From Heterodontus francisci (lineage: Eukaryota): DNA of 64,000 nucleotides. A program made the translations under genes and the position numbers. The notes beneath the pieces were generated by a model. That model ran no database searches, was not told the DNA's origin, and worked only from the letters and a program-made list of their open reading frames with translations. Shown here piece by piece: positions 1,328 to 41,418 of the stretch (position 1 is the stretch's first letter; each line of letters starts with the position of its first letter). The stretch covers positions 21,103,846 through 21,167,845 of the forward strand of contig NC_090414.1 of the NCBI RefSeq assembly GCF_036365525.1, in the 5' to 3' direction.

Positions 1328-1383
1328 CTGAAATCGGAGAAAGTAATCCCTTCAAAACGCTGGCCATTATCGCACAAGGCGAT

Positions 1384-1748
1384 GTTAGATACAGAGTAAA
1401 GCTCCCTCTACACTGTCCCCATCAAACACTCCCAGGACAGGTACAGCACAGGGGTTAGATACAGAGTAAAGCTCCCTCTACACTGTCCCCATCAAACACT
1501 CCCAGGACAGGGACAGCACGGGGTTAGATACAGAGTAAAGCTCCCTCTACACTGTCCCCATCAAAAAAAAAAAGACGGGGGTTAGATACAGAGTAAAGCT
1601 CCCTCTACACTGTCCCCCATCAAACACTCCCAGGACAGGTACAGCACGGGGTTAGATACAGAGTAAAGCTCCCTCTACACTGTCCCCATCAAACACTCCC
1701 AGGACAGGTACAGCACGGGGTTAGATACAGAGTAAAGCTTCCCCTCAA
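1384..1748 (+). repeat. ~69-bp minisatellite (Tx1 target repeat), about 5 units, in a RELA intron
   Basis: Unit GGGGTTAGATACAGAGTAAAGCTCCCTCTACACTGTCCCCATCAAACACTCCCAGGACAGGTACAGCAC. Confidence 0.95.
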
Positions 1749-1800
1749 ACTGAGATGGAGACAGTCTGGTACCCGTTTCTACGGTGATTCTCCTACTCAC

Positions 1801-1941
1801 GGTTGTCATAGATTGGGTTGGAGACGACAGGCGGAAGGGGCGCTTTGCAAATCCCAAGCTCGTTGGGAAGAAAGACTTGGAAGCAGAGCCGGACCACGTT
1901 CAAATCTTCCTCTGTCTCGTTCATCAACTCCTCTGGTGAGA
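1801..1941 (-). CDS. RELA: RELA coding exon 6
   Basis: [14 protein letters not shown]...[14 protein letters not shown]; ttgcag acceptor, gtgagt donor. Confidence 0.93.
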
Positions 1942-2214
1942 CTGCAACGTACACAAGATGCCACGGATTAATCAAGAGAGCAGCAGATCCTGAGCAATTG
2001 GGTTGGGTTTGGGGGGGGAGGGGGCCGAGATTTATTCATTCCCAGGCCTCTGGTAATTAGTGCCAGTGGGCCCACTGCCTCCCCAGCCCCACCTCTCACC
2101 ACTACCCTGCGCCACCAAGTCGCACAAACTCAAAGGATTGCAGTTTTGTTGCCCCGTCAGCACCGCCGCCCGCAGTCGAATAGTCAGCCGACGCCATTGG
2201 TCCGAGGTACTCAC

Positions 2215-2306
2215 TGTTGAAGGGGTTGATGTTCTTGTTGAGCCGACTCTGGATGGCGATCGCCACCTCGCGCTTCTTCACGCACTGAATACCCAGGTTC
2301 TGGAAG
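2215..2306 (-). CDS. RELA: RELA coding exon 5
   Basis: [31 protein letters not shown]; 92 nt, AG/GT boundaries. Confidence 0.95.
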
Positions 2307-2499
2307 CTGGAGCACAAAGAGAGGAGGGAGAGGGTTAGGTGTCAACAGGCAGCCCCAGGGCCCCGCTCCGTGACCCCTGAACCCTGCCATTCCCCCCCCC
2401 TCCCTTCGCAGCCCACCCAAGTCCCTCGACCCCACTGGCCCTTCAATCCCTACCTTCCCCCCCCCCTCATCTCTCATACCTCCTTCCCCCTGCACAAAC

Positions 2500-2645
2500 C
2501 TGTGGATGCTCCTCTCAGGCAGCTCAGCCTCGTAGTATCCATCCTTGCAATCTTTCCCGACCAAGTCATGGGGGTGGGGCTTGTACGGTTCCTTTTTGGT
2601 GACGAGGCAGATTCGGATCTTGGCCGGGCCGACGTAGTTCACGAT
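2500..2645 (-). CDS. RELA: RELA coding exon 4
   Basis: [48 protein letters not shown]; AG/GT boundaries. Confidence 0.95.
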
Positions 2646-3037
2646 CTGAACCGCAAGCGGTTAAGAAAGAAAAAAAAAACACACACCGTGCAATTAACAG
2701 CAGCTCACCTGGCTCTCATTGGCGAACCCATTCTCGGGAGGAGACCGTCACCGGCAAGGCAGGGCATTGATTGATACAATGCAGTGGCACATTAACGTAA
2801 CCAGCCCTCAATAAAGGCCGCGTGGTTAAATGACCCGCCCAGTGAGGGACTGAGGCCCACACACACACACACACACACACGCAGCGCGAGTAGGGCCCTG
2901 CGACGGCCCCCCACAGTCAAATAGCTTGCTCACACATGAAGGTCTGGCCTCCCTGGAACAGCACCCGTGGAACCCAGACCCCAGCGAGAGAGAGCCCCTT
3001 GCAGAGAGGGAGGGGTGGGAAACCGGAACATCGAACA

Positions 3038-3470
3038 ATAGAAAGAAGTTACATTTCGATAGCGCCTTTCACCACCTCAGGATATCCCAAAGCGCTTTTC
3101 AGCCAATGAAGTATTTCCTGTTGCATTAGTCACTGTGGTAACGTAGGAAACATTGCAGCCAATTTGTGCACAGCAAGCTCCCACAAGCAGCGACATGATA
3201 ATGAGCAGAAAATCTGTAAATATTCTTCAGGACACTGCGGGGAAGCTCTCCGCTTTTTCTTTCCATTTGTGGCCGCAGGATCTTTGACATCCAACTGAGC
3301 GTGCCTCGGTTTAATGGGTCGTCAGAAAGATAGCCCCCTCTGACAGTGCAGCACTCACGCAGTACTGCACTGGGAGTGTCGGCCTGGATTGTGTGCTCAG
3401 GGCTCTGGGGCTCGAACCGACAAACCTTCTGACCCAGAGGCGCGACTGCTACCCGCTGAGCCATGGCTGA
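3038..3470 (-). mobile_element. Shark tRNA-derived SINE (SacSINE1/DeuSINE-like; family name tentative)
   Basis: Core gcacagcaagatcccacaaacagcaatgtgataatgacc and a B-box-like head; related copies near 7750-8250, 10390-10540, 13420-13680, 22706-23200, 25800-25960, 30990-31130, 32690-33010, 43680-44040, 44810-45160, 47280-47610, 54730-54950. Confidence 0.65.
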
Positions 3471-3549
3471 CAGCTCAATGCAGGGTCAGGGGGGTGGTGG
3501 TGAGAAATCGGCGCCGGTCAGACAGCCCCTCGCTTGCTCTGTGCCTTAC

Positions 3550-3706
3550 CTCAATAGCTGGGTAGGTCCTCGTGCTGTCAGTGCTCTTCTCCCCAGGGAT
3601 GCTCCCGGCCGACCGCCCCTCACACTTGTACCGGAAACGCATCCCTCGTTGTTTGGGTTGTTCCAGGATCCGGATATAAGGAGCTGCCGGGGGAAGAGCA
3701 CGAGAT
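3550..3706 (-). CDS. RELA: RELA coding exon 3, DNA-recognition loop
   Basis: [44 protein letters not shown]; gtaag donor. Acceptor at 3707 fits the phase of the upstream exons; an alternative acceptor exists at 3684. Confidence 0.9.
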
Positions 3707-3829
3707 CTGTGAGGAACCGCTCGGAAAACTAACCCCCCCCCCCACCCCGAAAAGTAAAACGCTGAAACAAGTGGAGCTTAGAAAGTGCTGCCAAACGGAA
3801 TTGTGGTAAAAGATTGATCACAGACTAAC

Positions 3830-15260: not shown

Positions 15261-15360
15261 TCATTCAGTCAAGGTCCCCTGTGACGCTTCTTCAAGCTCC
15301 AAATCACCATTGGTGACTCCACATCCACTGCGGCTACGATGGAACATGTCACTCCCAGTC
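15261..15360 (-). CDS. Avidin-like protein, last coding exon
   Basis: tgtctctctgtttgatacag acceptor, phase 2; (G)TGSDMFHRSRSGCGVTNGDLELEEASQGTLTE*; TGSDMFHR matches avidin strand 8 VGINIFTR; ATTAAA at 15191-15196. Confidence 0.8.
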
Positions 15361-15501
15361 CTGTATCAAACAGAGAGACAAGAGTCCAGTAACCACGAAA
15401 TAGAAATAGGCAGATTTAGCTCGCACTATTTCATCAACTTGCAGTTGATGGGGACACTGTCCCCATCAAACACTCCCCAGGACAGGTACAGCACTGGGAT
15501 T

Positions 15502-18500
15502 GGCTGGGCAATTTGGAGCACTTCCTGCCAGCAATCAGGGGCAGCAACTGCAGAGTGGAGACTGCAGCAATTGGAGAGAGGAGAGTGGAATAACTGCAAA
15601 GAGGTGACTATAGAGTGGAGACAGCTGCATTTACTGTGGAACTGTTGCACTTTTTCAAGGATTAAGAAGACCTGCAAGTCATTTTGGAGAGGTGGGTGTT
15701 GGAGCACCAGAGAACTGTTGGTTGTTTGGACTGTTGGGGGAGGGAGGAGGCACCGGAAGATCCAGGGGTGGGGCTGCCAAATTCTATAGGGAGCCCTTGT
15801 ATTTGGTCTTGTGTTTATCTGCCATCCTGCACAAAAGGGGCTCCCTCCCCACCCCCAACTGTGTGGCTCGGGACAGCTGGAGCTGCCTGGCTGAAGACTA
15901 TATTTATACAACAACAGAAAAGGGAGAGAACCGGGCGGCTCGAGCCGACCCGGGCGAAGAGCACTCCCCTAACTGGAAGATTGAATTGTAGACTCTGCAG
16001 GAAGGTGCTCCAACCACCAATTGAAGTGTAACATCCTCGCAGCTGTTCTCTCTCTTCCATCACTCGGCCACCTATCCTCTCCTCTCCTTGTCCTTTTCAA
16101 CCCTATCCTCCTCTACTCCCATCCCCACCTCCCCCATCATATTGTTTGTGTTAAAGAAAACTGTCGTGTGCTTTGTTTTTTGGGGGTGGGCGTAGCTCTG
16201 CGACCCCATGGCAAGCCCCTCTTCGCCGGTGGCGGGGCCTTCCCGTTTATATGCTGCTGCGGCTGCTGCAGCTGCACCTGTTGCCCCGTCACCGTTTGCT
16301 TTATTAACATCGAAGCATGGAGTCAAGAGCTACGTCCACCCAAACATGACTATCGAGGCGTGCGTGAAAGCAATGGCCGAGGCTGTCGGCCCTTCAGCCA
16401 TTGTTGCAGCCTCTAAAATGTACGGGAAGGCAGTGTTATTCCTGAAGACCGAGCGGGCGGTGTCCCTGGCTCTGAGCAAGGGGCTCACCGTGGGCGGGAC
16501 CTTTCTGCCAGTGGACCCCCTGGAGGCCACTGCGCAAAGGCTCATTCTATCCAATGTCCCGCCCTTCATTCCTGGTGAGCTCCTCCTTCCCCACCTGCAC
16601 CATCTGGGGGAGGTAAAGACGGGGCTCACCCCAGTCCCGCTCGGTCTTCGGGAGAACAGCCTCCGACACGTGTACTCCTTCCGCCGCCAGTTATTCATGC
16701 AGCTGGCGCGGGAGGAGGTTACAGAGGGCCACTTTAATGTAGAATTCCAGGGGACGGCCTACCTCGTCTTCTGGACATTGGACGGGGTGCGGTGCCATGT
16801 CTGTAAGGGGGTGGGGCATGTTCGTAAGAACTGCCCCAACCTCCCGGCTGCCAACTCCAACTCGGTGGCCCAGGGTGGCGACACTGCACCTCCTCCCACC
16901 CCCACTACACCTCCACCAGATACCATTCAGTCGGTACTGGAGGCTGTGGTTTTCACGGCCTCCAGCAGGGAGGGGGGTGACCGTCCAAGTGGAAGGAAGG
17001 CGCAGAGGAGAAATAAACATCGAGAGGCGCGTCCCCTGGACACCGTGACACTACCCGAGCCTGAGCTCAGCCCAAGGCCCGATCTCGGGAAGTCAACTTG
17101 CCCCAGGGCTGGGCTCAGGCCCAGGGTGAATAAAAAAAAGGAGAGTGTGGAGGTGGAGGTCTCTGATGATATGGAGGTCTCTGAGCCTCCGCACACAACT
17201 GGGAAAAAGAGGAGAAGGCACCCCTCCACAGAGGTAATGAGGGACCCTGAGGCGCAGGGCCCATCTGTTGGAGGGGAGCTGTCTCCTGTTTCGGGTCCCC
17301 AGGTTTCCCCTACCGCCACCACCAAGGCTGCAAAGTCCGGGCAGGAGCACCCTATTCCTCAGGATGGAGGGGAGGGGAAGGCCCCGGTACTTGAGGCCCC
17401 TCCTGAAGGAGTAAGTGGGGCCCTGCTTGTGGTGGGGAGCCTGGGGACGCCGCCCATTCTGCCACTGCCACTGGGTTGGGTGCCCTGAGTAGAGGGGAGG
17501 GCGAGGCCTCAGAGGGTCGGCCCTCCCAGCCGGAGTCCACCACCAACCAGGAGACACCCGACCCGGTTATAGCTGAGAATGCTGCCCCATCTGCTGGGCC
17601 TGTGGGTGCTGGCGGAGCGGGAGATAGCCTCCTCCCTCCGCCTCCAATCTCGGCTCCGGCTGGTTTCCCGGAGTCGGGAACTTCTGTCTCCCCTGGACCA
17701 CTCATTGCCCTGGGGACGGAGGTGGAGGGGGGTCCTGAGCCGCTGGTGCCTACAGGCTCCAGTTTCACAATAGAACCCAGAGAGGACTCCTCCGCCATCG
17801 ATCCTGGGGGTGGGATCGTGACGGAGGCGGGACCAGCTGGCGCGGCCGGGACGTTCGCCCCACAGCGTGCGGTGGGAGTGTCGGCCGCTGGCGGTGACGA
17901 CCCGGAGGAGGATGGGGATTCAGTGGGGGGCACGGAGGATGATCTTGATTCCATCGCCAGTGAGATGGTGGAGTCCCTCATGCCTCCCACCGAATCTCCT
18001 CTCATCCCCACGGCGGAACTCCAGGATTTCCTCGCGGTTTGCAGGGGCTGCCGCAATAAAGTTCAGCTGGCCCTCGACCGTTGGTCGAATCTGGCGCTGA
18101 TCATCCAGTCCGTCCGTGCCGCCCTTAAGATAGCGGGCAAGCGCACGGGCGTGAAACTGGTTGAGAGGCGCCGTTTTAATGTGTTCCTCAATGGGTTGCT
18201 GGGGGAGTGGAAGGCCAGGTGCACGTCCACTCCCTCCTCACAGTGAGCTGTTGGTGACGGGTTTTAAGTACCTTTGACATGAAGATAACCATAGCCAGCC
18301 TCAACACCAACGGCAGCAGGGGGTCTCACCGCAGATTTCACAATCTCTCAGTCCTCAGGGAAGGGAGATACGCGGTGAGCTTTCTGCAGGAAACCCACAC
18401 CGTTCCGGGAGACGAAGCCACCTGGCTCCTGGAGTGGCAGGGTGGGGTCTACATGAGTCACCTCACCCCTATTTATAGTGGGGTGGCTATCTTGTTGGCC

Positions 18501-21500
18501 CCGACTTTTCAGCCGGAGATCTTGGGGGTCAAGGAGCTAGTGCCGGGCCGCTTGCTCCACCTCGCCGTTCGCCTGGGTAGCGTGCCACTCCACTTTGTGA
18601 ACGTGTACGCACCCAGACCTGGCGCGTTGCAAGCGCGCTTCTTTGAAGAAGTGTCCGCTCTCTTGAGCTCCATCGATAGCGGCGAGTGCATCATCCTCGG
18701 GGGGGATTTTAACTGCACCCTCGAGGTGGGGGATCGCTCCGGTCCCCAGCGCGGCCAAGCGTCGGTGGAGAAGTTGAGGGGACTGATCAGCTCCCTTAAC
18801 TTGGTGGACGTCTGGCGGAATCTCCATCCCGACTCCAGCGCCTTCACATGGAGGTCTGGAGGAGGAGGGTCGCGAATCGACCGCCTCTACATTTCGCATG
18901 CGTACGCCTCCCGCATCTCGGCGGCCTCCATGCGGCTGGTGCCGTGCTCGGACCACCGCTTGGTGTGGGCGGAGTTCACTCCGCTCCGCACGCGGGCGGG
19001 GTCCGCGTACTGGCACTTTAACAAACGGCTGCTGGAGGACGAGCGATTTCGGGACTCGTTCTGTCGATTCTGGGCCGACTGGAGAAGGGAGCAGGGGGGC
19101 TTCCCCTCCTTGAGGCTATGGTGGGATGTGGGCAAGACTCACATCCGCGTCTTCTGTCAGGAGTACGCGAAGGGGTCGACCAAGAGGCGAGAAGCCGAGA
19201 TCGGGCGCCTTGAGAGGGAGGTGCTCGACTTGGAGTCCCGCCTCGGTCATGCCGTCGCGGACCCGGCCCTGTGGCAGGCCTACAAAGAGAAAAGGGCGCG
19301 CTGAGAGACCTGCAGCTCTTAGGGTCCCGAGGCGCGTACGTGAGGTCGCGGATCCAGATCCTGGAAGATTTGGACCGTGCCTCACCCTTCTTCTACTCGC
19401 TGGAAAAATGGCGGGGGGTCCGTAAGCAGCTCGTCGAGCTGCTGGCCGACGACGGATCCTCCATCACGGATCCGGAGGGAATGGGCCTCCTGGTACGTAC
19501 TTATTACAGTGCGTTGTTCCCTCCGGATCCGTCCGGCGAGGATGCGCGCAGAGTTTTGTGGGAGGACCTGCCGCAGGTCAGCCCGGAGGGCGCCGAAGGA
19601 TTGGAGGCTCCGCTCACGTTGTTTGGAGCTGACTGGCGCCCTCCACCAGCTCTCGAGGGGCAAATCCCCGGGGCTGGATGGGTTGACCGTGGAGTTCCTC
19701 AGGGCGTTCTGGGACGTCCTGGGGGACGATTACGCGCGGGTCCTGGGGGAAAGCCTGGCGACCGGGGAGATGCCCCTCTCGTGGCGCAGGGCGGTTATCG
19801 TCCTGCTGCCGAAGAGGGGCGACCTCCGCCTGCTTAAAAACTGGCGTCCGGTCTCCCTCCTCAGCACGGATTATAAGATCTTTGCCGCCGCAGAGTGTCT
19901 AGTCAAAGTTAACGGGTCCTTGACGGCGCCCCTTCGATTTGGGAGAGGAGTGCGTCAGGGGTGCCCCATGTCCGGCCAATTGTATACCATCTGCGTGGAG
20001 CCCTTCCTGTGCCTGCTTCGCAGGAGGTTGACGGGATTGACTCTGCGCGAGCCGGCCATGCGGGTCGTCCTCTCGGCTTACGCCGACGACGTGCTCCTCG
20101 CAATCACAGATCCCGTTGACTTGCGGAGGATGCGCGACTGCCAGCAGACCTTTTCTGCCGCGTCCTCCGCGAGGATCAATTGAGAGAAATGTTCCGGACT
20201 CCTGGTTGGTCAGTGGCGGGTGGACTCCCTGCCGGAGGAGATGACACCTTTTGCGTGGAGCACCACGCACCTCCTCTATCTGGGAGTCCACCTTAGCCCC
20301 GCTGAGGAAGCCTGGCCGGCAAACTGGCAGGAGTTGGAGGCGAAAGTCACCGCTCGGCTGGGGCGCTGGACAGGACTGCTCCGAGTGCTTTCCTACAGGG
20401 GCCGAGCGCTGGTCATAAACCAACTGGTGGCCTCCATGCTGTGGTACCGGTTGGTCACTTTGGCCCCGCCCCCTGTATTTGCCACCAAGATCCAGAAGAA
20501 ACTCGTCGGTTTCTGCTGGGGCAAGAGGAAACACTGGGTCTCTGCCGCGGTCCTGAGTCTCCCGATCGAGGAGGGCGGTCAGTCGCTGGTGTGCGTCCGC
20601 ACCCAGGCTGCGACTCTCCGCCTTCGGACCCTGCAGAGATACCTGTACGTCGAGCGTCCTCCCAGATGGTGTGCGCTGGCGACGTATTTTTTCCGCCAGT
20701 GTCACTGCCTTCAAGACGACACGCAGCTCCCGGTGGAGTCCGTTAGCCGCGCCTCTCTGAGGGAGTTGCCTGTCTTTTACCGGGATCTTTTCCGAGTCTG
20801 GAACATGGTCGCCTCCAGTCAGGGCGCTCCCCCGCCGGCGGAGGAGAGCGCCTCGGCTGTCCGGGCGACCGACTCCGGGGACGGTCCGGCGGGTGGAGGA
20901 GTAGCCGAAACCCCCGGGACGCCCCTCACTGCGGGTGGCGAGGGGGCTCGGGAGTGCGGAGCGATCCCGGCCGAGCTGACCCCCGCTCGGCCGGAACTGC
21001 TCATCGGACCCAGGCCCCGAAACCCTCCTCGGGAGCCGGTCCCGCACAACCCGAGCCGCCTCTCGGAAATGCCCTCCGTGCCATTCCAATCGGCGCGGAG
21101 GGGTTTCCTGTACGGGTTGCTCCTGCACACTCTCCACTTCCTCGCCCTCGTCAGCCGGCCGGACACGCCCTGGCGGTCCGCGTTGCCATCTGACGGCGAG
21201 GGGAAACCCCGATGGAGGTCTCTCTACGCGGGAGTCTTCCCCCTTTACATCGGGGACCTGGGGTGGAGGGTGCTGCACAGAGCAGTCCCGTGCAATAGGC
21301 TTTTAAGTAGGTTCACGGACTCCCAGGCCTCCTGTACTTTCTGCAGCCTGGACGAGTCCGTGTTCCACGTTTACATGGAGTGTGCGAGGTTGCAGCCCCT
21401 CTTTGAGTATCTGAAGGGGCTGCTCCTCAAATTCTGGCTGCACTTCAGTCCCACGCTCCTGATCTTTGGGCACCCGGTGCGGAGGGGCTCGGGCCGGGAG

Positions 21501-21885
21501 GAGGATCTCCTCGTCGGTCTGCTCCTGGGCCTGGCCAAGGTGGCGATTCACAGGTCCAGGCTGCGGGCCGTCGGGGGTTCCGTCCTCCCCGATTGCCTGC
21601 CCCTCTTCCGCGGTTACGTTCGCGCCCGGGTGTCCCTGGAGAAGGAGCACGCGGTGTCCGCCGGTACGCTTGAGGCCTTCCGCGACTGGTGGGCACCGCA
21701 GGGACTGGAGTGCATTGTCGACACCGAGAATGGCATTTTAATTTGAGTTTTTGTTTATTTCTGTTTTTAATAAAGTTATTTTAAAAATATAGGTGTGTAT
21801 ATAAAGGGGGCCTGAGGAATAAAGGCCCCCTCGACATAAAATATATAAAAGGGGCCTGGGGTTTCAAGGCCACCTAAAAAAAAAA
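15502..21885 (+). mobile_element. Tx1-clade non-LTR retrotransposon, near full length, defective (copy 1), antisense in avidin intron 3
   Basis: ORF1 16208-18246 with CCHC knuckle CHVCKGVGHVRKNC (frameshift ~17440); ORF2 18279-21746 with APE endonuclease (FLQETH, GGDFN, SDH), RT (YADD) and C-terminal CTFC..H..C; frameshifts ~19290 and ~19620, deletion at ~19886, stop at 20181; poly(A) 21876-21885. Confidence 0.95.
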
Positions 21886-22125
21886 CGGGGGTTAGATACA
21901 GAGTAAAGCTCCCTCTACACTGTCCACATCAAACACTCCCAGGACAGGTACAGCACGGGGTTAAATAACGGTTCCTTGAGATGATGAGGCTCTGAAGCAT
22001 CACTTCCACCCCTTGGTATTCCCGCCTCCCTTGAGATAAAGACTAACATCCACTCACATTGCTTGTAAGTAAGTACCTGTGGGCAGGATTTACAATCCTA
22101 TCTACACAAGAGATGCTTTAATTAC

Positions 22126-22249
22126 CCGGTAGCTCCCCAGTTATCCTCTGGGTTCGACGCACTTCGCCGGTGTAACCACATGGTTTTCAAGACCTCTCTA
22201 TTTTTTATCTTAAAGTGCTGTCCGGTCCAAGCTGTGACACACCCTGGGT
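22126..22249 (-). CDS. Avidin-like protein, exon 3
   Basis: DPGCVTAWTGQHFKIKNREVLKTMWLHRRSASNPEDNWGATG, compare avidin STTVFTGQCF...EVLKTMWLLRS...DDWKATR; AG/GT, phase 1/2. Confidence 0.92.
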
Positions 22250-22455
22250 CTGTGGGCGAAGGAAATACAAAACAGTCATTAGGGTATGTGTCATTGTCGG
22301 TTTAAACAGAGAAAACCAAACACTAGGGTTTGTTTCTGGAGGGATAGAATCGAAAGCAGGGAGGTTATGTGAAACTTGGACAGAACCTTCGTTAGACCTA
22401 GTCATATACGTGGCTGCCCAGAGCATCATACAGCTCAATAAATACTATGGGTTAC

Positions 22456-22642
22456 CTGTGATCCACCTCACTATAAACCCAAACGTTGGTTGGCTGAGGT
22501 TCTGCTGATATCCAGTTACAACCCCTCTTGCACTGCGTCCAGTCTTCAACATGTAAGAGCCACTTATGAGCCCAGAGTCACGCACTACGATGTTCAGGCT
22601 TGACCCGAGTTCACTTATCCAACAGCCAGTCAGTGGCAGTGC
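22456..22642 (-). CDS. Avidin-like protein, exon 2
   Basis: ALPLTGCWISELGSSLNIVVRDSGLISGSY...GYQQNLSQPTFGFIVRWIT, compare avidin SLTGKWTNDLGS...GTY...QPTFGFTVNW; AG/GT, phase 0/1. Confidence 0.92.
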
Positions 22643-23446
22643 CTGCCGGGAAGGTAAGGCATTTATTAAACATCATTGACTCTACATCTATTTCATTGAT
22701 AGATAAAGAAACTTGCGTTTCTATAGCGCCTTTCAGGGCCTCAGGACATGCCAAAGTGCTTCACAGCCACAACGTACCTTTTACGAAGTGCCGTCACTGT
22801 TACAGGAAACGCGGTGACCAATTTGCGCGCAGCAAGATCCCGCAAACAGCAATGTGATAATGACCCAGGTCGTCTGTTAGTGATGTTGGTTGAGGGGTAA
22901 ATATTGGCCCCGGGACACCGGGGACACAGGTCTCGGGAGTGGGGCTTAAACCCATATCTGACTCAGAGGGAGGGGAGGTCTGCCCGGTGTCCTGGGTCAA
23001 TATTTATCCCTCAACCAACATGGCTAAACAAAAAAAGCAGATGATCTGGCCATTGCCACAGTGCTGTGTATGGGATCCTGCTGTGCGCAAAATTGGCTGC
23101 CAGGTTTGCTACATTGCAACAGTGAGCACACCTCAGAAGGTACTTCATTGCCTGTAAAGCGCTTTGGAATGTTTTGAGAATGTGAAAGGCACTACAGAAA
23201 TGCCCTTATACATCTCTACTGACGGAGTGCAGCACTGGCAGAGGTGCCCTCTCTCAACTGACTCTTCGCCACATACTTTACCTCAGGCTTGACCCCTCAT
23301 CATCCAGTGCTCCTGGATGGAAAATGCAGGGCTGTAATTGTCAGGGGCAGACCGAAGGAGACTGCAGTGAACAAGCAACAAACATAAACGTTCCTCCTTT
23401 TCCTTACCCCGGGTACCTTGCTTGAGGCTCTCTGTGTTGGGAAATC

Positions 23447-24252
23447 TCTAACCCAGGGGTCACTGGACAGTGATCAGGAGCAGGAACCCTGACTGATTCT
23501 CCCCCCTCTCTCTAACCCAGGGTCACTGGACAGTGATCAGGAGCAGGAACCCTGACTGATTCTCCCCCCTCTCTCTAACCCAGGGTCACTGGACAGTGAT
23601 CAGGAGCAGGAACCCTGACTGATTCTCCCCCCTCTCTCTAACCCAGGGGTCACTGGACAGTGATCAGGAGCAGGAACCCTGACTGATTCTCCTCTCTCTC
23701 TAACCCAGGGTCACTGGACAGTGATCAGGAGCAGGAACCCTGACTGATTCTCCTCTCTCTCTAACCCAGGGTCACTGGACAGTGATCAGGAGCAGGAACC
23801 CTGACTGATTCTCCCCCCTCTCTCTAACCCAGGGGTTACTGGACAGTGATCAGGAGCAGGAACCCTGACTGATTCTCCCCCCTCTCTCTAACCCAGGGGT
23901 CACTGGACAGTGATCAGGAGCAGGAACCCTGACTGATTCTCCCCCTCTCTAACCCAGGGGTCACTGGACAGTGATCAGGAGCAGGAACCCTGGCTGATTC
24001 TCCCCCCTCTCTCAAACCCAGGGGTCACTGGACAGTGATCAGGAGCAGGAACCCTGGCTGATTCTCCCCCTCTCTAACCCAGGGGTCACTGGACAGTGAT
24101 CAGGAGCAGGAACCCTGACTGATTCTCCCCCCCTCTCTCTAACCCAGGGGTCACTGGACAGTGATCAGGAGCAGGAACCCTGACTGATTCTCCTCTCTCT
24201 CTAACCCAGGGGTCACTGGACAGTGATCAGGAGCAGGAACCCTGACTGATTC
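23447..24252. repeat. ~62-bp tandem repeat, about 13 copies, avidin intron 1
   Basis: Unit CTCTAACCCAGGGGTCACTGGACAGTGATCAGGAGCAGGAACCCTGACTGATTCTCCCCCT(CT)n. Confidence 0.92.
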
Positions 24253-24389
24253 TACCCCCACCCACCCCACCTACCCTCTCTCCCCAACCCAGGCGATTAC
24301 TCTGACCGATTCTGACCGGCGTACCCCCCCCCCCCCCCCCCCCCAACTTTCCTGCAGGAACCCATTCTCCAGACGGTCTACTGACTTAC

Positions 24390-24461
24390 CATTTCTTCAC
24401 AGGAGGTGCTGAAGACACACAAGGAAAGCGTGAGCGCCAGGTACACAATCTTGCCCTGCAT
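24390..24461 (-). CDS. Avidin-like protein, exon 1 (signal peptide)
   Basis: gcagcagcATG context; MQGKIVYLALTLSLCVFSTSCEEM has a basic residue, hydrophobic core and small-residue cleavage region; gtaagt donor in phase 0 matches exon 2. Confidence 0.8.
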
Positions 24462-27060: not shown

Positions 27061-27214
27061 TCAAAGGTTGGCGACAGGCGGCTCCTTCAAGTTGCGGCCC
27101 GTCCCGGCGATTGGCCGATCTCTCTCCTCCCACAGGGTCACACCGTCGCACGAGCAGATCTTTTTCGGATTCTGGAAGAGTCCAGCGGAGCGAGCTATAA
27201 TTCCGCAGGCCAAA
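27061..27214 (-). CDS. CCS: Copper chaperone for SOD1, exon 8
   Basis: [51 protein letters not shown]; CXC motif. Confidence 0.95.
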
Positions 27215-27866
27215 CTTGGTGGGGGGGTGGGGGGGGGGAAAGCAAGGATCTGAGATCAGGCACAGCATGTGTTACATACAGAGTAAAGCTCCCTCTACAC
27301 TGTCCCCATCAAAAAACACACACACAGCCCCATATCCAGAACTGGAGAATAATGGGGGTAAACTGCAGGAATACATAATGAGGGCAGGTCTCATGGGCTA
27401 TGCTCGTGCTCCCACCGCACCCCCACCCCCCCAAAAAAAAACAGGTTTAACATTTCGTCTGAAAGACGGCACCTGTGACAGTGCAGCACTCCCTCGGTAC
27501 TGCACTGGGAGCGTCCGCCTGAACTATACGCTCAGCAACATAAGATGCATTTTTTATACAATTTCAAGCCTTATGAAGCATCTGCTAAGGTTCTGCATTT
27601 AAACCCGACTGTGTCCTCCCCTCGAAGCAGGATTGCAGGATCTTGTAGTACGGATGCACCCTCCCTCCTCCGTCCCACCTCGGCTCTCCCCTCGCTCTAT
27701 AAAATGAGAGGGTAGTACAGTTCCCCTCACTTGGTCTATAGCTCGGCTCTCCGAGGGGCATCAAGCAGCCGAAGGCCTGGCATACGGTGCCCGTCGGCCG
27801 CCAGCCAGCCACCAGGGATGCCCGCCGCACGCGTGTCGGTCCGAGCTGGTTCGCCCGCTAACCTAC

Positions 27867-27970
27867 CGGTCTCCAGAGTTGCCTGTAATCTGGGACAGTG
27901 GGTGGGCTCCTTTGCCCAAGTCGTCCTCGTTACTGTCAACCACCACCGACCGGCCTATGATGTCCCAGAC
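27867..27970 (-). CDS. CCS: CCS exon 7
   Basis: VWDIIGRSVVVDSNEDDLGKGAHPLSQITGNSGDR; 104 nt, AG/GT. Confidence 0.95.
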
Positions 27971-28639
27971 CTGGGGAGGGAGGGACAAAGTTAGTGACAT
28001 GCAGCTCGTTACAAAGCATCTCCCCTGGGTCAACACCCCAGTGCCTCTGGAGCCGGCCATCAAGCCCCCTTTACCATTCTGCCCTCCCACATACCTGCAT
28101 GGTTCCACACCCAGTCTATTTGAATAGAGTCCAATTCACCTCTCGATGTGTGTGTGTGTGAGAGAGAAAGAAAGAGAGAGAGAGAGAGGGGGAAGAGATA
28201 AACGACCAATATCTCTTTCCTGATCAGTCTGCAGTGACTCCTGGAAAGAGTTTGCACGAACACTGGAGTGAAAATGAGAGCGAGAGTGTGCGCACGAGGG
28301 AGTAGCTGTTCAGAACAAAGTGAGACGCGGAAGCTATTAAAGGCAGTAAACGTGACAGTTTTACAGACGGTCCCTGTGATATGCTAGATTTAATTTAAAA
28401 CTGGTGGATCTCACACCCATTAATCACACGGAGACAGAGGATGTGCTGTTTTATACAGGCTGGACTTTTGTACCCAGAAACAGCGTAACAATCTGAAGGA
28501 GGAGAATCTCCCCCCATCTGACTACTGACAAGGTGTTCTGGCTTTCTCCACATCCAGTGACCCTGAATTCACATCACAGAAACATTGAGTCCACGCTGGT
28601 TCTCTGCGGAGCAATCCGGGCAGCCCATTCTCCTGCTTG

Positions 28640-29160
28640 ATCCCTGTCGCCCTGCTTTCCTGCATTACGAGTCTAGATGTTATGATCGCTCTTGCCCAAG
28701 TGCTTCCCCCACAGACACTTGGTCCAATTCTCCCATCTCATTCCAGCAACGCCTCCTTTCTACCTGGGACCGAGAACATACCGATCAATGAAGTTCTCCT
28801 GAACACATTTTAGAAATTCCTCCCCCTCCTCTCTCTTCAATATTATCCCAATCGATATTTGGGTAATTCAAGTCCCCCAATATCACCACTCTATAGTTCT
28901 TGCCTTCCCGAATCAGCACTGCCAACCCACCTCCTTTTTTCCCTTCTCTAACTTTTCGGCACGCTTTATTTCCTTGTATATTAAGAGCCCAGTCCTTTCC
29001 ATTTGTAAGCCACGTTTCCATTATCGCCACTACATCATATTCCCACACGGCTATTTGTGCTTGTAACTCACCAGCCTCATTCACCACACTGTGTGCGTTT
29101 ACACACATGTATTGTAACCCTGTCTTTGCATTTCTTGTGCTCCTTCTCAGCCCACTCCTA
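28640..29160 (-). mobile_element. CR1 LINE endonuclease fragment
   Basis: YDVVAIMETWL...GGGLAVLI...VVILGDLNYPNIDW. Confidence 0.75.
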
Positions 29161-29173
29161 TCTCGTACAGACT

Positions 29174-29558
29174 GGGAGGAGGATCTCCTCGTCGGTCTGC
29201 TCCTGGGCCTGGCCAAGGTGGCAATTCACAGGTCCAGGCTGCGGGCCGTCGGGGGGTCTGTCCACCCTGATTGCCTGCCCCTCTTCCGCGGTTACATTCA
29301 CGCCTGGGTGTCCCCGGAGAAGGAGCATGCGGTGCCCGCCGGTACGCTTGAGGCCTTCCGCGACCGGTGGGCACCGCAGGGATTGGAGTGCATTGTTGAC
29401 GCCGAGAATGGCATTTTAATTTGAGGTTTGTTTTATTTTTTCAATTTTAATAAAGTTATTTTGTAAAATGTATATCAGGGGGACCTGAGGAATAAAGGCC
29501 CCCTCGACATAAAATACATAAAAGGGGCCTGGGGTATAAAGGCCACCTTAAAAAAAAA
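29174..29558 (+). mobile_element. 5'-truncated Tx1 copy (~0.39 kb)
   Basis: Matches ORF2 end EEDLLVGLLLGLAKVAIH...ENGILI, 3'UTR and poly(A); followed by tggggttagatacagagtaa. Confidence 0.93.
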
Positions 29559-31240
29559 TGGGGTTAGATACAGAGTAAGGATCCCATAAAAATGACACAA
29601 AGTGTAGCGGAAATCTGGAATTCTCTTTCCCAACTGAAGTGTTCAAGATTGAGATCAATAGATTTTTATTGAGTAAAGGGTTTTTAAGGAATATGGAGCC
29701 AATCTGGGTCGGGTTAGAATACAGATCAGCCACTGAATGCACAGCAGGGTCGAGGGGCTGAATGGCCTCCTCCTGGACGTGCTTGCGGGCGGATAAGGAT
29801 CCAACCGAGGACTTGGAATTATAAGAGTGAGAATCAACGCGGAATGGCTTTCATCAGATATCCGTTCGGAGTGGGGGAAAAAACCTGGATGAATTCCCCC
29901 CCTCACTACCCGAAGGCGGTGGGCAAGCCTACTTGTATCATTAAACCACCGTCCCAAATCCGATCCGCTCGGTCAGTAGGGGGCTGAAGCGTAAGGCGCA
30001 GTCGGAGACGGACAGGCAGCTAGCTCACTGATCTAATGTCACAGCCACTTGCAGGTAAAATTCGCAAAGCTGTCCTGAAACATGCGAAATCGACAGGCAG
30101 GAAATGACCCAGCTCAACCATCAAGCCCTGCCCTACGCTCGCCATTTGCGCAGCGTCAGGTCTAAACATTTCCTCCCTCCCGTTCCTCTCCCCACCCCCT
30201 CCCCTCCCCTCCCCTCGGCTCCGTCCTACTGCCATGCAATCTCCTGGAAGAGGCAAAGAACCAGAGGAAAACCCCAGGAACAATAAGGAGAACATTACTG
30301 GATCAAGTGTGACCTATACAGACACTTCCCTTCCGGAAGACACCATCTCTGGCTCCCTCGGAGAGTCAGCACGGATTTCAAAGTGCTCTCTTCTCGGGGA
30401 AACCATCCAACTTCCAGTCTATTGCTGCTCTTAAATAGTTTACACACATGTCCCTGGTCCTCTCTGATCTCTCAATGGACCCGCTACCCAGCATTTTAAT
30501 TATTTTATCGACCTCGATTAGGTCATCTCCACGCTACTGTGAAGTAAACAGAAGGAGGTCATAACAAGATAAGAAATAGCAGCAGGAAGAGGCCATTCGG
30601 CCCATCAAGCCTGCTCCACCATTCAATACGACCATGGCTGATCCTTGGCCTCGACTCCACTCCAAGGCAAGTGCATCCTTCCTTAAAGATGGAGACCAAA
30701 ACTGCGCACAGGGCTCCAGGTGTAGTCTCACCAAAGCCCTGTACAATTGTAGCAAGACTTACTGAAGTCATGTATTCCAATCGCCTTGCAATAAAGGCCA
30801 ACATGGTTGGTTCTTAAGCATACCTGAGTAACTAAGTTCCTTTAAGCTAGGAATCGTTTTTGCAGCTTTTCTCGGGGCATTTTCCAAGACGACTTTCTTG
30901 TGTGTGGGGACCAAAATTGGGCCAGCACGCTAGATGTGGTCCAACCAATGAGACCGTGGGAGCTGCACCTGAGAGGGCCGACAGGGTTGAATGTCTCACC
31001 CGGAAGGGTGGCACTGCCGACACTGCAGCACTCCCTCAGTACTGGCACTGGGAGTGTCGGCCTGGATTTTGTGCTCAAGTCTCTGGAGTGGGGGTCAAAC
31101 CCGCGACCTTCTGGCTCAGAGGTGAGTGTGCAATCGCTGTTAGCATTGTCCCTGAACCTTTGATGGGAGGGTTTCAGGAGGACCTCGGAGCGGACACTTC
31201 CCCACCACCACCCCTCCCCCCGCGACTGCCGCTGTCCTAC

Positions 31241-31318
31241 CTTGAGACGGTCATCCTGGATTCGGAAGTTGGCCCTCCCATCTTCATTGGCTTGGATGTT
31301 TCCCAGGTCACCAACGTG
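31241..31318 (-). CDS. CCS: CCS exon 6
   Basis: HVGDLGNIQANEDGRANFRIQDDRLK; 78 nt, AG/GT. Confidence 0.95.
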
Positions 31319-31789
31319 CTGGAAGAGAGGCAACAATAAGGACACTTCGAGGGACAGGATTCCTCAAGGATTGGGAAACAGATGGAGAAAAGGTGAGGAA
31401 AAAAAAGTAGGCATTAAGCGATGCCAAGCTTGAGGTTGGAGGAGGAGGTGGACCTGGGAGGGGGCAATAGTTCCAGGCGTGGACAGCCCTGGGAGTGAGT
31501 GAGGTAGAGGAGAAAGAGCGATATGAGGGGGAAGGCAGAGCGTGAAGGATGGGGGATTTGAAGAAGCTCCGAGTGGGAAGGAGGGGATCAATACAGAAAA
31601 CCTGCAGCAGACAGAAGAACCAACCAACACCTAATCAGTGGCTGCTGTGTAGACTGCAGCACTTCACACATAATGCACACATCAACACAGGAACCCTGAG
31701 GATGTACAATATAGTACGATGAAACTACACACCAACTCATCTCCTGTCCAAAGGTCATCTGTGTAGAGTGAGATGAAGGACAGGTAACC

Positions 31790-32305
31790 CCAGGTACAGT
31801 ACGGGGGTTAGATACAGAGTAAAGCTCCCTCTACACTGCCCCCATCAAACACTCCCAGGACAGGTACAGTACGGGGGTTAGATACAGAGTAAAGCTCCCT
31901 CTACACTGTCCCCATCAAACACTCCCAGGACAGGTACAGTACGGGGGTTAGATACAGAGTAAAGCTCCCTCTACACTGTCCCCATCAAACACTCCCAGGA
32001 CAGGTACAGCACGGGGGTTAGATACAGAGTAAAGCTCCCTCTACACTGTCCACATCAAACACTCCCAGGACAGGTACAGCACGGGGTTAGATACAGAGTA
32101 AAGCTCCCTCTACACTGTCCCCCATCAAACACTCCCAGGACAGGTACAGCACGGGGGTTAGATACAGAGTAAAGCTCCCTCTACACTGTCCCCCATCAAA
32201 CACTCCCAGGACAGGTACAGCACGGGGTTAGATACAGAGTAAAGCTCCCTCTACACTGTCCCCATCAAACACTCCCAGGACAGGTACAGCACGGGGTTAG
32301 ATACC
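31790..32305 (+). repeat. ~69-bp target minisatellite, about 7.5 units, CCS intron 5
   Basis: Same unit as 1384-1748, no insertion. Confidence 0.95.
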
Positions 32306-32587
32306 CACCTGAATAATGCGTTTGGGATCCAACTGGAGAGTGATACTTTCCTGTATCTTATACCTGCCGTCCAACTGCCTTTCTGAGTGAGATTACCGAA
32401 TTGGAAGGTATTTATTTTGTGGGGAGATCCGATCCTCTGTGACATGGGAAGAGATTGCCCCCAATTATTTATAGCCTCCTGGGCTCCCTGTTGAGGAGAA
32501 CTGTTGAAACATCCCTCGGACATACTGTGCGAGTCACCCTCACTGCAACTCCCTGGGTGGGCACGGAGCAACACAGACCTCACTTAC

Positions 32588-32648
32588 CCGGTCTACATCC
32601 TGCGGACCGCCGTGCCTGTTTTTTCCTGGATTGTAGTGGTTGCCACAG
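32588..32648 (-). CDS. CCS: CCS exon 5
   Basis: SCGNHYNPGKNRHGGPQDVDR; 61 nt, gtaag donor. Confidence 0.93.
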
Positions 32649-33548
32649 CTGTGGAGGAATCACATGCAAACATTAATCTGCAGCGAGGATGTCACAAAGG
32701 GTGGCTCAACGGTTACGTCCCTTGCCTCTGATTCACGAAGGCCGTGGGTTCGAATCCCACTCCCACTCGCTTCCGGGCTGGCGCTCCCAGTGCCGCACTG
32801 TCGGAGGTGCCGTCTTTTGGACGAGACTAAAACCGAGGCCCCGTTTTCCTTCTCAAGGACGTAAAAGATCCCTTTGGAAGGAGAGCCCCTCCCCGGAGTT
32901 CTGGCCAATATTTATTCCTCAACTAACAACACTTAAATGAAAAAAAAACCCAGATGATCTGGTCACTGCAGTTTATGGGATCTTGCTGTGTACAGTTTGG
33001 CCGCTGCCAGTGGGATAACTGGCTTGTGCACAACGGTGCCACTTTCCAAAACCATTCTGGAACTGGAGATATGTCGCCAATGAAAGGAGCCACAAAACTG
33101 TTGGATTGTCCTAAAAAAATACCCGACCGGCCCCAGCCTGTATGTGACTCCCGTCACACGCCAATGTGGTTGACTCTGAAACGGTTGAGCAAGCAGCTCA
33201 GTTGTCTCCAACCACTTAACAGCACTTTCGACTCACGGGCTGTAGCGGTTCAAGCAGGTAGCTTCCCCACCTCAAGGGGCAATTATTGGATGGGCAACAA
33301 ATGCTGGGCCTTGCCAGCAGTGCTTGTATCCTAAGAACGAGCGAAGAAGAAAATTGGGTTTGGTTGTGATTCCTACCGTGGCCAAATAGCCAGCCGGTGT
33401 CAAGTGCCCAGACTTGGGAATCAGATGGCGCAGCAAAAGTCGGGAACCGGGGACGGGAGAAAAAAGCTGGGCCCCCAACTTTGCTGCCCGTCACCTGTGG
33501 AATCCACCTCAGTATCTCCCTCACACACATTCACGGGCGACACACTAC

Positions 33549-33726
33549 CTGAAGCAGGAACTGCTCAGGTCCCCAAACTCATGCACATGTAAACCGTGCA
33601 GGCCTGGTCTCAGACCGTCGATTGTCCCTTCGATGACACACTGCTTCTCTGACAGCTGCAGGAACCGCACTGCGCCCTTGATGTCACCCTCTGGGCCCAG
33701 CATCGCCACAGCAGCACCCAGGTCCT
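33549..33726 (-). CDS. CCS: CCS exon 4 (SOD-like domain)
   Basis: DLGAAVAMLGPEGDIKGAVRFLQLSEKQCVIEGTIDGLRPGLHGLHVHEFGDLSSSCF; 178 nt. Confidence 0.95.
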
Positions 33727-33753
33727 CTATGGAGAAATGGCACAAGGGCACAG

Positions 33754-34287
33754 GTTAGATACAGAGTAAAGCTCCCTCTACACTGTCCCATCAAACACTC
33801 CCAGGACAGGTACAGCATGGGGGTTAGATACAGAGTAAAGCTCCCTCTACACTGTCCCATCATAAACTCCCAGTGCAGGTACAGCATGGGGGTTAGATAC
33901 AGAGTAAAACTCCCTCTACACTGTCCCATCATAAACTCCCAGTGCAGGTACAGCATGGGGGTTAGATACAGAGTAAAACTCCCTCTACACTGTCCCATCA
34001 TAAACTCCCAGGGCAGGTACAGCACGGGTTACATACAGAATAAAGCTCCCTCTGCACTGTCCCATCATAAACTCCCAGGGCAGGTACAGCATGGGTTACA
34101 TATAGAGAAAAGCTCCCTCAAAAAAAACAAAAAAAAAAACGGGGTTAGATACAGAGTAAAGCTCCCTCCACACTGTCCCCATCAAACACTCACAGGACAG
34201 GTACAGCACGGGGGTTAGATACAGAGTAAAGCTCCCTCTACACTGTCCCCATCAAACACTCCCCAGGACAGGTACAGCACGGGGGTT
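33754..34287 (+). repeat. ~69-bp target minisatellite, about 8 units with variants, CCS intron 3
   Basis: Same unit; the array resumes at 41308-41365 after the Tx1 insertions. Confidence 0.93.
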
Positions 34288-34690
34288 GGCTGGCCGGGAG
34301 GAGGATCTCCTCGTCGGTCTGCTCCTGGGCCTGGCCAAGGTGGCAATTCACAGGTCCAGGTTGCGGGCCGTCGGGAGGTCCGTCCTCCCCGATTGCCTGC
34401 CCCTCTTCCGCGGTTACGTTCGCGCCCGGGTGGCCGTGGAGAAGGAGCATGCGGTGTCCGCCGGTACGTTTGAGGCTTTCCGCGACCGGTGGGCACCGCA
34501 GGGACTGGAGTGCATCGTCGACGCCGAGAATGGCATTTTAATTTGAGTTTTTTGTTTATTTATCTGGTTTTAATAAAGTTATTTTAAAACTGTAAATATG
34601 TACATAAAGGGGGCCTGAGGAATAAAGGCCCTCTCGATGTGAAAAATATAAAAGGGGCCTGGGGTATAAAGGCCACCTTTAAAAAAAAAA
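34288..34690 (+). mobile_element. 5'-truncated Tx1 copy (~0.40 kb)
   Basis: Preceded by cagcacgggggtt; ORF2 end, 3'UTR, poly(A) 34681-34690; followed by cggggtttag. Confidence 0.93.
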
Positions 34691-34717
34691 CGGGGTTTAG
34701 AAAAAAAAACGGGGGTT

Positions 34718-37700
34718 GGCTGCTGTCTAATTGGGGTGTTGACTGCTGATTGCAGCAACGAGCCTCAGCTGAGAGTGCTGGTGGCAGTTGGAGGTTGCTG
34801 AGGTGGAGAGAGGAGCTGGACTGAGCAAGGGAAAGCAGTTACAACCAAGCAGAGGGAAAGCTTCAACAACAATCACCATTAAAGAGAAGAGAGAGATATT
34901 TTTTGTTGGAAACAAGGCTTTGTCTGGAGGTGGGGGCTGAACACCAGTAATTTGCTTTACTTTGGACTGTTGTGGGACGAACAAGTGGCCGGAACAACAA
35001 GGGGTGGGGCTGCCAATTCAGCAGGAATCTGTGCTGCTGCACAAGCACACAGGAAAGCTCCCTCCCCACCCCAATTGCCAAGCCTGGGTCAGCTGAAGCT
35101 GCCCGGCTAAAGAGACGGAAGGGGATAGATAGTGCCTGGGCAGCTTCAGCTGACTCAGGTGAAGATACCTCCCTCAACCAGAAGATCGGAAGACCAAGTG
35201 CAAAGACTGTTTTAAGTGTACTGTGAGCACCACCTCCAGAAAGCAAGTCATCCCTTACCACATGTCTTTACCTCTCCTCTATTCCCTCAGCCTCTCCACT
35301 AACCTGTTGTTTGTTTTTTTTTTAATACATATCCAATATCTTTTGTGAATCTTTTGTTATTCGGTTTGCAAGCCCACAATTTGGGGTGGGTTTAGCTCTT
35401 GGATCCATGGCAAGCCCTTCAACCCCGGTGGCCGGGCCCTCTACAACCTATGCAGCTGCAGCCTCTGTGGCTGCCCACGTGGCCCCGTCACCCTTTAAAT
35501 TGCTAACATCCAGCCATGGGGTGAAGAGCTATCCCCACCCCAACATGTCTATTGAGGCCTGCGTAAAGGCAATGGCCGAGGTTGTCGGCCCCTCGGCCAT
35601 TGTTGCGGCCTCAAAGATGTATGGGAAGGCTGTGTTCTTTTTGAGGACCGAGCGGGTGGTGTCCCTGGCCCTGAGTAAAGGGATCACTGTGTGTGGGGGG
35701 GGTGGGGGACCTTCCTGCTGGTGGACCCTCTGGGGGCCACTGTGCAGCGGATAATGCTATCAAACGTCCCACCCTTCATTCCCAGTGAGCTCCTCCTCCC
35801 CCATCTGCACCATCTGGGGGAGGTGAGGTCGGGGATCACCCCAATCCCGCTCGGTCTTCGGGAGCACAGCCTCCAACATGTCTACTCCTTCCGCCGCCAG
35901 TTATTTATGCAGCTGGCGCGGGAGGACACGGCAGGCCAATTTAATGTGGAGTTCCAGGGGACGGCCTACCGTGTCTTCTGGACCTCAGGCGGGGCGCGGT
36001 GCCACGTCTGCAAGGGGGTGGGGCATGTTCGCAAGAACTGCCCCAACCTCCCGGCCGCCAGCTCCACCTCGGCGGCCCAGGTTGATGCCGCTGCACCTCC
36101 TCCCACTACCCCCACACATCCTACAGACACAGCTCAGTCGGTTCCGGAGGCTGTGGTTTTCACAGCCTCCAGCGGGGAGGGGAGTGCCCGTCCGAGTGGA
36201 AGGAAGACGCGGGGAAAAATAAACACTGAGAGGCGCGTCCCCTGGACACCATGACACAACCCGAGCCTGAGCTCAGCCCAAGGCCCGTTCTCACGGAATC
36301 CACCTGTCCCAGGGCTGGGCTCAGGCCCAGAGTAATGAAAAAGAAGGAGGGTGCGGAGGCCTCTGATGACATGGAGGTCTCTATGCCTCCGTGCCCTAGT
36401 GGGAAAAAAGAGGAGAAGGCACCCCTCCACTGAGGTAACGAGGGGCCCTGAGGTGCAGGGCCCATCTGTTGGAGGGGAGCTGTCTCCTGGTTCAGGTCCC
36501 CAGGTTCCCCCTACCGCCACCACCAAGGCTACAAAGTCTGGGCAGGAGCACCCTATTCCTCAGGATGGAGGGGAGGGGAAGACACCTGTACATGCAGCCC
36601 CTCTGGGGGAAGCCAGTGGAGCCCTGCTTGTGGTGGGGAAGCCTGGGGACGCCTCCCATTCTGCCACTGGGTCGGGTGCCCTGAGTGGAGGGGAGGGCGA
36701 GGCCCCAGATGGTCGGCCCTCCCAGCCAGAATCCACTCACAACCAGGAAACACCCGACCCGGTTATAACCGAGAATGCTGCCCCATCTGCTGGGCCTGTG
36801 GGTGCTGGCGGAGCGGGAGATGGCCTCCTCTCTCCGCCTCCAGTCTTGGCTCCGGCTGGATTTCCGGAGTCGGGCACTTCTGTCTCCCCTGGGCCGCTCA
36901 TTGGCCTGGGGACGGAGGTGGAGTGGGGTCCTGAACCGCTGGCGCCCACAGGCTCTAGTTTCACAGCAGAACCCAGAGAGGACTCCTCCGCCATCGATCC
37001 TGGGGGTGGGATCGTGACGAAGGCGGGACCAGCTGGCGCGGTCGGGAGTCCGCCCCACAGTGTGCGGTGGGCGTGTCGGCCGCTGGCAGTGACGACCCGG
37101 AGGAGGATGGGGATTCGGTGTGGGGCACGGAGGGTGATCTTGATTCCATCGCCAGTGGGGTGGTGGAGTCCCTCGTGCCTCCCGAGTCACCTCTAATCCC
37201 CACGGCGGAACTCCGGGATTTCCTCACGGCTTGCAGGGGTTGCCGCGATAAAGTTCAGCTGGCCGTCGGCCGTTGGTCGAATCTGGCGCTGATCATTCAG
37301 TCCGTCCGTGCCACCCTCAAGAAAGTGGGCAAGGGTGGGGGCGTGAAACTGGTTGAGAGGCGCCGTTTTAATGTGTTCCTCAATGGGTTGCTGGGGGAGT
37401 GGAGGGCCAGGTGCACTTCCACTCCCTCCTCACAGTGAGGTGTTGGTGACGGTTTTAAGTACCTTTGACAAGAAGATAACCATAGCCAGCCTCAACATCA
37501 ACGGCAGCAGAGGGGCTCACCGCAGATTTCACAATCTCTCAGTCCTTAGGGAAGGGAGATACGCGGTGAGCTTTCTGCAGGAAACCCACACCGGTCCGGG
37601 AGACGAAGCCACCTGGCTCCTGGAGTGGCAGGGTGGGGTCTACATGAGTCACCTCACCGCTATTTCTAGTGGGGTGGCTATCTTGTTGGCCCCGACTTTT

Positions 37701-41307: not shown

Positions 41308-41418
41308 CGGGGGTTAGATGCAGAGTAAAGCTCCCTCCGCACTGTCCCCATCGAACACTCCCAGGGTGTCCTCAACCCATAGCCCAGGACTCTAACAACA
41401 TCTGGTCATTCTACTTAC

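Follow-up and report, generated by a model that had tools for sequence, protein, structure and literature searches.

Avidins, proteins of the kind found in egg white, take hold of biotin (vitamin B7). In the genome of the horn shark Heterodontus francisci (RefSeq assembly GCF_036365525.1, contig NC_090414.1) a four-exon, avidin-like gene lies between RELA and CCS, and the question raised by this locus is whether its product still holds biotin as known avidins do. All coordinates used here are positions in the window, that is, the whole stretch of 64,000 nucleotides analyzed (21,103,846 to 21,167,845 of the contig); the avidin gene is on its minus strand. The answer proposed is a tentative one: the gene would encode a secreted, disulfide-stapled tetramer with weak and reversible biotin binding.

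The gene itself was readily established. Its exons of 72, 187, 124 and 100 nucleotides sum to 483, which gives 160 codons and a stop in a stop-free frame; the three introns (1747, 206 and 6765 nucleotides) all run from GT to AG, have pyrimidine-rich acceptors and interrupt the frame in phases 0/1/2. Exons, splice signals, phases and intact 160-residue precursor are as claimed in a first-pass annotation made from the sequence alone, and the avidin motifs listed there are present in the spliced protein. That annotation had called the gene hidden, which it is not, because the spliced product is letter for letter the RefSeq protein XP_067877801.1, “avidin-like [Heterodontus francisci]” (a computational model, found with exon 2 as the query as the one 100% identical protein, of 160 residues, among 20 candidates); shark and ray avidins, moreover, are already catalogued in PMC13425791. 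The four-exon avidin gene is real as a gene model, is already annotated in RefSeq and carries little weight as a gene discovery; its value is that of a testable natural variant.

Taken singly, exons 2 and 3 score 37.8 and 35.2 bits on Pfam Avidin, above its cut-off of 24, and exons 1 and 4 give no match; a profile built from seven shark relatives, the horn shark protein excluded, gave exon 4 an expect value (E) of 0.0028 and exon 1 an E of 2 among 2757 six-frame peptides. Exon 4 is needed, as it supplies most of strand 8; a natural gene end by read-through into intron 3 was rejected, since a stop follows immediately and strand 8 would be lost. Another copy of the gene, or a spare final exon, elsewhere in the window was likewise discarded, two profiles run over the 2757 peptides having returned this gene’s exons only, and a weak tblastn match at 11664–11750 turned out to resemble a long interspersed nuclear element (LINE) instead of further avidin sequence. 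The signal peptide is predicted from hydropathy (peak 2.31, residues 5–15) and from the relatives only. On the minus strand at 24488–24550 an out-of-frame ATG, 89 nucleotides before the start and read by eye, begins a short reading frame that ends ahead of the main start; it matters only if it lies within the transcript.

A search of the full protein against the avidin profile, as suggested at first pass, gave a match to PF01382 well above the cut-off (86.3 versus 24 bits; E 2.5e-24; profile positions 2–116 of 116), and a sequence search matched xenavidin with an E of 2.8e-18. The AlphaFold2 model, built from 127 sequences, is predicted to form the eight-stranded antiparallel beta-barrel of PF01382, with a mean predicted local distance difference test (pLDDT) score of 86.2 and high values up to residue 140. 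Foldseek superposes it on xenavidin with a template modeling (TM) score of 0.89 and a root-mean-square deviation (rmsd) of 1.6; the model also superposes on avidin and AVR4, and its structural match to VIA has a Z of 17.8 (rmsd 1.6, 112 aligned). Profile, fold and the grouping described below uphold the assignment to the avidin family of a cartilaginous fish. The barrel is basic, with an isoelectric point (pI) of 9.8, and is followed by an acidic tail of 23 residues. A four-copy model scored 0.91 against 0.48 for the best control, but solved avidin tetramers exist, so that the score may reflect memory and shows likeness only; of 30 solved homo-pairs 21 reach the mark for such models, of 23 monomers none (17/29 and 0/30 for eukaryotes). 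Contact agreement between runs was at least 96% and partner pLDDT at least 86. The modeled contacts involve residues 110/129/131 and 124, the classic 1–3 and 1–2 interface positions, as would suit a presumed homotetramer in which Trp124 caps the neighbour’s pocket.

As for its place within the family, PMC13425791 (2026) describes 130 fish avidins with two chondrichthyan clades, the second without the disulfide cysteines; all 18 Chondrichthyes rows of its Table S2 were covered, and Heterodontus occurs neither in its text nor in four supplements. The horn shark protein groups with XP_043538978.1, XP_048380958.1 and XP_041037893.1, all labelled clade 2 in that table, and its nearest relatives include the entries C. 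plagiosum_2, S. tigrinum_2 and C. carcharias_2A (PMC13425791). An orthologue search, also suggested at first pass, provided 17 other shark and ray clade-2 proteins for alignment; with the horn shark copy, these 18 stand on one side of a branch with support of 79/91 and in 98% of 200 bootstrap trees, and in a quick tree (136 of 138 rows) the clade-2 group has a value of 92 in the Shimodaira–Hasegawa-like approximate likelihood ratio test (SH-aLRT). Judged by these trees the horn shark protein is a chondrichthyan clade-2 avidin, with moderate support and an uncertain root. It is 54% identical to Chiloscyllium plagiosum XP_043538978.1 and 57% identical to an avidin-like protein of Heptranchias perlo. 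Its end branch measures 0.45, as compared with 0.26 for Heptranchias, 0.44 for Mustelus, 0.54 for Stegostoma and up to 0.76 among the relatives; accelerated evolution of the entire protein was rejected, the branch not being exceptional in two trees, one of them the quick one. A further Heptranchias perlo entry, XP_067831661.1, is named “transmembrane protein 223” in RefSeq and has an entire avidin domain at its C-terminus; it is probably two adjacent genes fused by annotation. TMEM223 was considered as a neighbour in the horn shark window as well, but is not present there.

One departure from classic avidin is shared by the clade. Leu and His occupy the positions of the Cys4–Cys83 pair, which is likewise missing from clade-2 fish avidins (PMC13425791). 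Cysteines were surveyed in 247 aligned rows (21 of 268 were excluded as longer than 215 residues), 235 of which were scored and 12 not. A Cys just before Trp10 combined with a Cys 4–11 residues past position 118, and no classic pair, was found in 19 of the 235, namely all 18 clade-2 proteins aligned and one unnamed protein elsewhere in the tree; in this unrelated avidin the pair perhaps arose independently. Nine rows have the tail Cys only, and rays carry additional tail cysteines. Strands 1 and 8 adjoin each other in the avidin barrel, which makes a bond between Cys31 and Cys141 of the horn shark protein plausible, and the co-occurrence suggests that the strand-1/tail pair is probably the substitute disulfide for Cys4–Cys83 in clade 2. 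Such a swap would be a simple explanation for clade-2 avidins without the classic cysteines. Both cysteines are also present in six of seven published clade-2 rows, read by eye (PMC13425791).

Other departures are the horn shark’s own and concern the biotin pocket and its lid. Avidin numbering is used for the pocket, and for contact positions beyond the published lists this numbering is presumed. The lists are those of PMC3811995 and PMC2761383. Leu14, Ser16, Tyr33, Trp70, Thr77, Trp79, Trp97, Trp110 and Asp118 are kept, and all five residues of the aromatic cage (Tyr33, Trp70, Phe/Trp79, Trp97, Trp110) are present. Of the ureido hydrogen-bond set (Asn12, Ser16, Tyr33, Thr/Ser35 and Asn/Asp118; PMC3811995) three of five are kept: position 12 is Ser and position 35 is Leu, where all 17 other chondrichthyan clade-2 rows have Asn and Ser, respectively. 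Among 246 other rows Leu at 35 is not one of the eight most frequent residues, and in another alignment none of 136 rows has it. Position 75 is Cys (Ser in 15 of the 17 relatives) and position 99 is His (Leu in 14 of 17), while an in-frame deletion of 9 nucleotides leaves the L3,4 lid with 13 residues, three fewer than the 16 found in all nine clade relatives measured. Altogether there are nine departures from clade-conserved columns; the count is 0–5 for all but one of the 17 relatives, the exception being the fused Heptranchias model with 10. Chicken avidin loses affinity about 200-fold through T35A alone and about 500-fold through changes in L3,4 (PMC3201017).

The tentatively preferred reading is that the signal peptide exports the precursor and that the eight-stranded beta-barrel, stapled by the Cys31–Cys141 disulfide in place of the classic bond, forms the usual homotetramer with Trp124 over the neighbour’s pocket. 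Biotin would still be accepted via the aromatic cage together with Ser16, Thr77 and Asp118; with two ureido hydrogen-bond donors (Asn12 and Thr/Ser35) changed, a shorter lid and His at Leu99, binding would be orders of magnitude weaker, and reversible. The protein might then buffer or carry biotin outside the cell with low affinity and not be an irreversible antimicrobial sink.

Several points speak against this. Ser at position 12, found in 10 of 246 other rows, could still form a hydrogen bond, and PMC8033661 cautions that substitutions do not reliably predict binding. The concentration of departures in the pocket is weak and suggestive only: six of nine gives p 0.019 when counted by column, but five of eight gives p 0.054 and four of seven p 0.13 if the deletion is taken as one event. 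The proposed Cys31–Cys141 bond is drawn from co-occurrence in essentially one clade of kin rows, in three rows the strand-1 Cys stands without a tail partner, S. canicula 2A, a published clade-2 row read by eye, has the tail Cys and no strand-1 Cys (PMC13425791), and the extra Cys90 could pair otherwise.

The nine departures, so many more than in nearly all relatives, could also mark a decaying duplicate, under relaxed selection in the horn shark lineage, its pocket eroding randomly on the way to a pseudogene and the LINE in intron 3 perhaps disturbing splicing or polyadenylation. The donor of exon 3 is overlapped on the minus strand (22110–22125, just within intron 3) by an ATTAAA and a stop in frame, and an AATAAA at 21759 comes from the end of the antisense LINE, so truncated transcripts without strand 8 are possible. 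Laboratory zebrafish can do without their avidin and sharks have a second, clade-1 avidin (PMC13425791), though none from the horn shark was among the matches listed (best 120 of 658), which is weak evidence. Decay is nevertheless unlikely: the frame is open, the six splice sites are canonical, all five aromatic residues of the pocket and the two cysteines of the clade are retained, the sole indel is in frame, and the end branch lies inside the relatives’ range.

Retargeting would leave barrel and tetramer as they are and give the pocket a different small ligand, a metabolite of more hydrophobic or acidic character for which Leu35 and His99 are the basis, or the protein a non-biotin role like that of fibropellin’s avidin domain. 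The changes do fall on polar contacts and lid with the aromatic cage untouched; laboratory mutation of the same two loops made chicken avidin bind steroids (PMC3201017), and fibropellin is a natural avidin domain without biotin binding (PMC8033661). However, the enrichment is marginal, one species only is affected and there is no candidate ligand; fibropellin’s loss, too, runs via Trp70 and Trp110 (PMC8033661), both intact in the horn shark. We regard this as quite improbable, and it is equally doubtful that a natural avidin was retargeted from biotin via the engineers’ loops on a scaffold stabilized by an undescribed strand-1-to-tail disulfide. An ordinary high-affinity avidin starving microbes of biotin in egg or mucosa, in line with the possible egg or mucosal defence of the first-pass annotation, would suit the predicted secreted fold, the contact residues mostly retained, the basic barrel, the induction of chicken avidin by infection and the occurrence of zebavidin in eggs (PMC13425791), but is hardly to be expected with the lid shortened, Asn12 and Ser35 both lost and with zebavidin giving no protection against S. 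agalactiae (PMC13425791).

Zebrafish avidin knockouts show neither a developmental nor an S. agalactiae phenotype (PMC13425791). If the preferred weak binder, or the retargeted one, is real, such a variant, of low affinity, reversible or retargeted, would interest those who engineer proteins and be informative on the role of vertebrate avidins. No paper on a Heterodontus avidin or on a substitute disulfide in clade 2 was found in a literature without most subscription papers; neither the clade-2 Cys replacement nor the horn shark’s own pocket and lid changes were found in print.

The coordinates of the gene and of the features around it are collected in Table 1.

Table 1. Features of the horn shark avidin locus (window positions)
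Feature	Position	Strand	Remarks
Avidin exon 1, coding part	24390..24461	-	24 codons (residues 1–24 of XP_067877801.1); start codon, predicted signal peptide, phase-0 donor
Avidin exon 2	22456..22642	-	Barrel strands 1–5; Pfam Avidin E 2.7e-9; encodes Cys31, Asn12Ser, Ser35Leu, shortened L3,4 lid, one N-glycosylation sequon (Asn72)
Avidin exon 3	22126..22249	-	Strands 6–7; Pfam Avidin E 1.7e-8; encodes Trp124 (equivalent to Trp110, predicted to complete the neighbouring subunit’s pocket), Ser75Cys, Leu99His
Avidin exon 4, coding part	15261..15360	-	Most of strand 8; relative-profile match; encodes Asp132 (equivalent to Asn118), tail Cys141, acidic tail, stop codon
Candidate polyadenylation hexamer ATTAAA	15191..15196	-	65 nucleotides beyond stop; consensus match only
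64-bp minisatellite, intron 1	23445..24259	.	13 copies
L1-group (probably Tx1) retrotransposon without long terminal repeats (non-LTR), intron 3	15502..21885	+	6.4 kb; antisense to avidin gene
3′ fragments of the LINE family	34288-34690, 29174-29558		Ends at 34690 and 29558
70-bp minisatellite arrays	1384-1739, 31791-32304, 33753-34287		
Older LINE remnants between RELA and avidin	5246-5518 (+), 11400-12875 (-), 14360-15000		Endonuclease and reverse transcriptase fragments
RELA (p65), five Rel-homology exons	380..3777	-	Downstream neighbour; exon searched in PDB matches p65/RelA best
CCS, five exons	27064..41904	-	Upstream neighbour; HMA, SOD-like domain, CxC tail
Tandem RRM exon	56039-56437	-	
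892-codon frame	58074-60749	+	RRM end followed by a 42-bp repeat in 47 copies

The 6.4-kb element, first described as a Tx1 which cuts off the last exon, is indeed there, but it lies inside intron 3, leaves the avidin splice sites intact and does not cut off exon 4. It has an L1-type endonuclease, reverse transcriptase (RT), zf-RVT, a first open reading frame (ORF1) with zinc knuckle and a poly(A) tail; ORF1 is split across two frames and ORF2 is interrupted by stops, so both are broken. Its insertion lies within one 70-bp minisatellite unit and is flanked by what appears to be an 8-bp target duplication (15494–15501 and 21886–21893). A related copy (34718–41307) is 90–94% identical in the coding part and 55% in the 5′ untranslated region (38–45% when shuffled). 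Each of the four LINE-family poly(A) tails gives way to the minisatellite at one and the same point, six of the 43 A-runs in the window run into its motif as compared with 0.04 expected, and two copies have the unit’s upstream half on their 5′ side; the four copies come from one window and are not independent of local history. Target specificity is known behaviour of the Tx1 clade (PMC4494074, PMC3747384), and the family fits a target-specific Tx1, to which it likely belongs, its sequence placing it at the level of the L1 group only. In a CCS intron a short copy, made of the element’s first few bases joined to its last 400 bp, stands in direct tandem with the near-full-length one (34288–41307 together). 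Rfam gave no match over the 64 kb, hence no curated RNA family for the 70-bp target repeat; no paper on a shark Tx1 targeting this minisatellite was found in the same literature, which is also without Repbase.

RELA and CCS were both identified on the strand of the avidin gene, in agreement with the position first given for it. Between them, a search of all 75 stop-to-stop frames of at least 70 residues yielded LINE remnants and a tandem-repeat artefact only, though short exons could escape; the upstream RELA exon was not located. The RRM frames beyond CCS (56039–56437 and 58074–60749) we take to be RBM4 and RBM14, as in the human CCS-RBM14-RBM4 cluster.

The horn shark window holds one avidin copy, whereas three proteins are listed for Scyliorhinus torazame and two for Heptranchias, each set on contigs of a single length. 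With the clade-2 avidins the horn shark protein shares the lack of Cys4 and Cys83, the strand-1 and tail cysteines, Trp at 79, Asp at 118 and the extended tail; Ser12, Leu35, His99, Cys75 and the L3,4 loop three residues shorter are found in the horn shark alone. Chicken avidin, xenavidin (2UYW) and zebavidin (4BJ8) have in common with it the eight-stranded barrel (33–40% identity in structural alignments), Met96 at the 1–3 interface and Trp110; unlike them, it is without Cys4–Cys83, Asn12, Thr35 and Leu99, has the acidic tail and carries its glycosylation sequon elsewhere. The introns of chicken avidin are presumably in phases 0/1/2. Zebavidin, too, has four exons (87/211/120/42 nucleotides, versus 72/187/124/100), and the layout with a predicted signal peptide in exon 1 agrees with it; it is said to resemble all characterized avidins (PMC3811995). 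The printed sizes imply phases 0/1/1 if wholly coding. In the steroid-binding avidins, as in the horn shark, the L3,4 loop is altered. Streptavidin positions 23 and 45 correspond, we take it, to horn shark Ser34 and Leu56. These are two of the three positions changed in “dead” streptavidin (N23A/S27D/S45A; PMC5175265); the horn shark protein differs in that its Ser16 (streptavidin Ser27) is intact, that the substitutions are others and that it is a natural variant.

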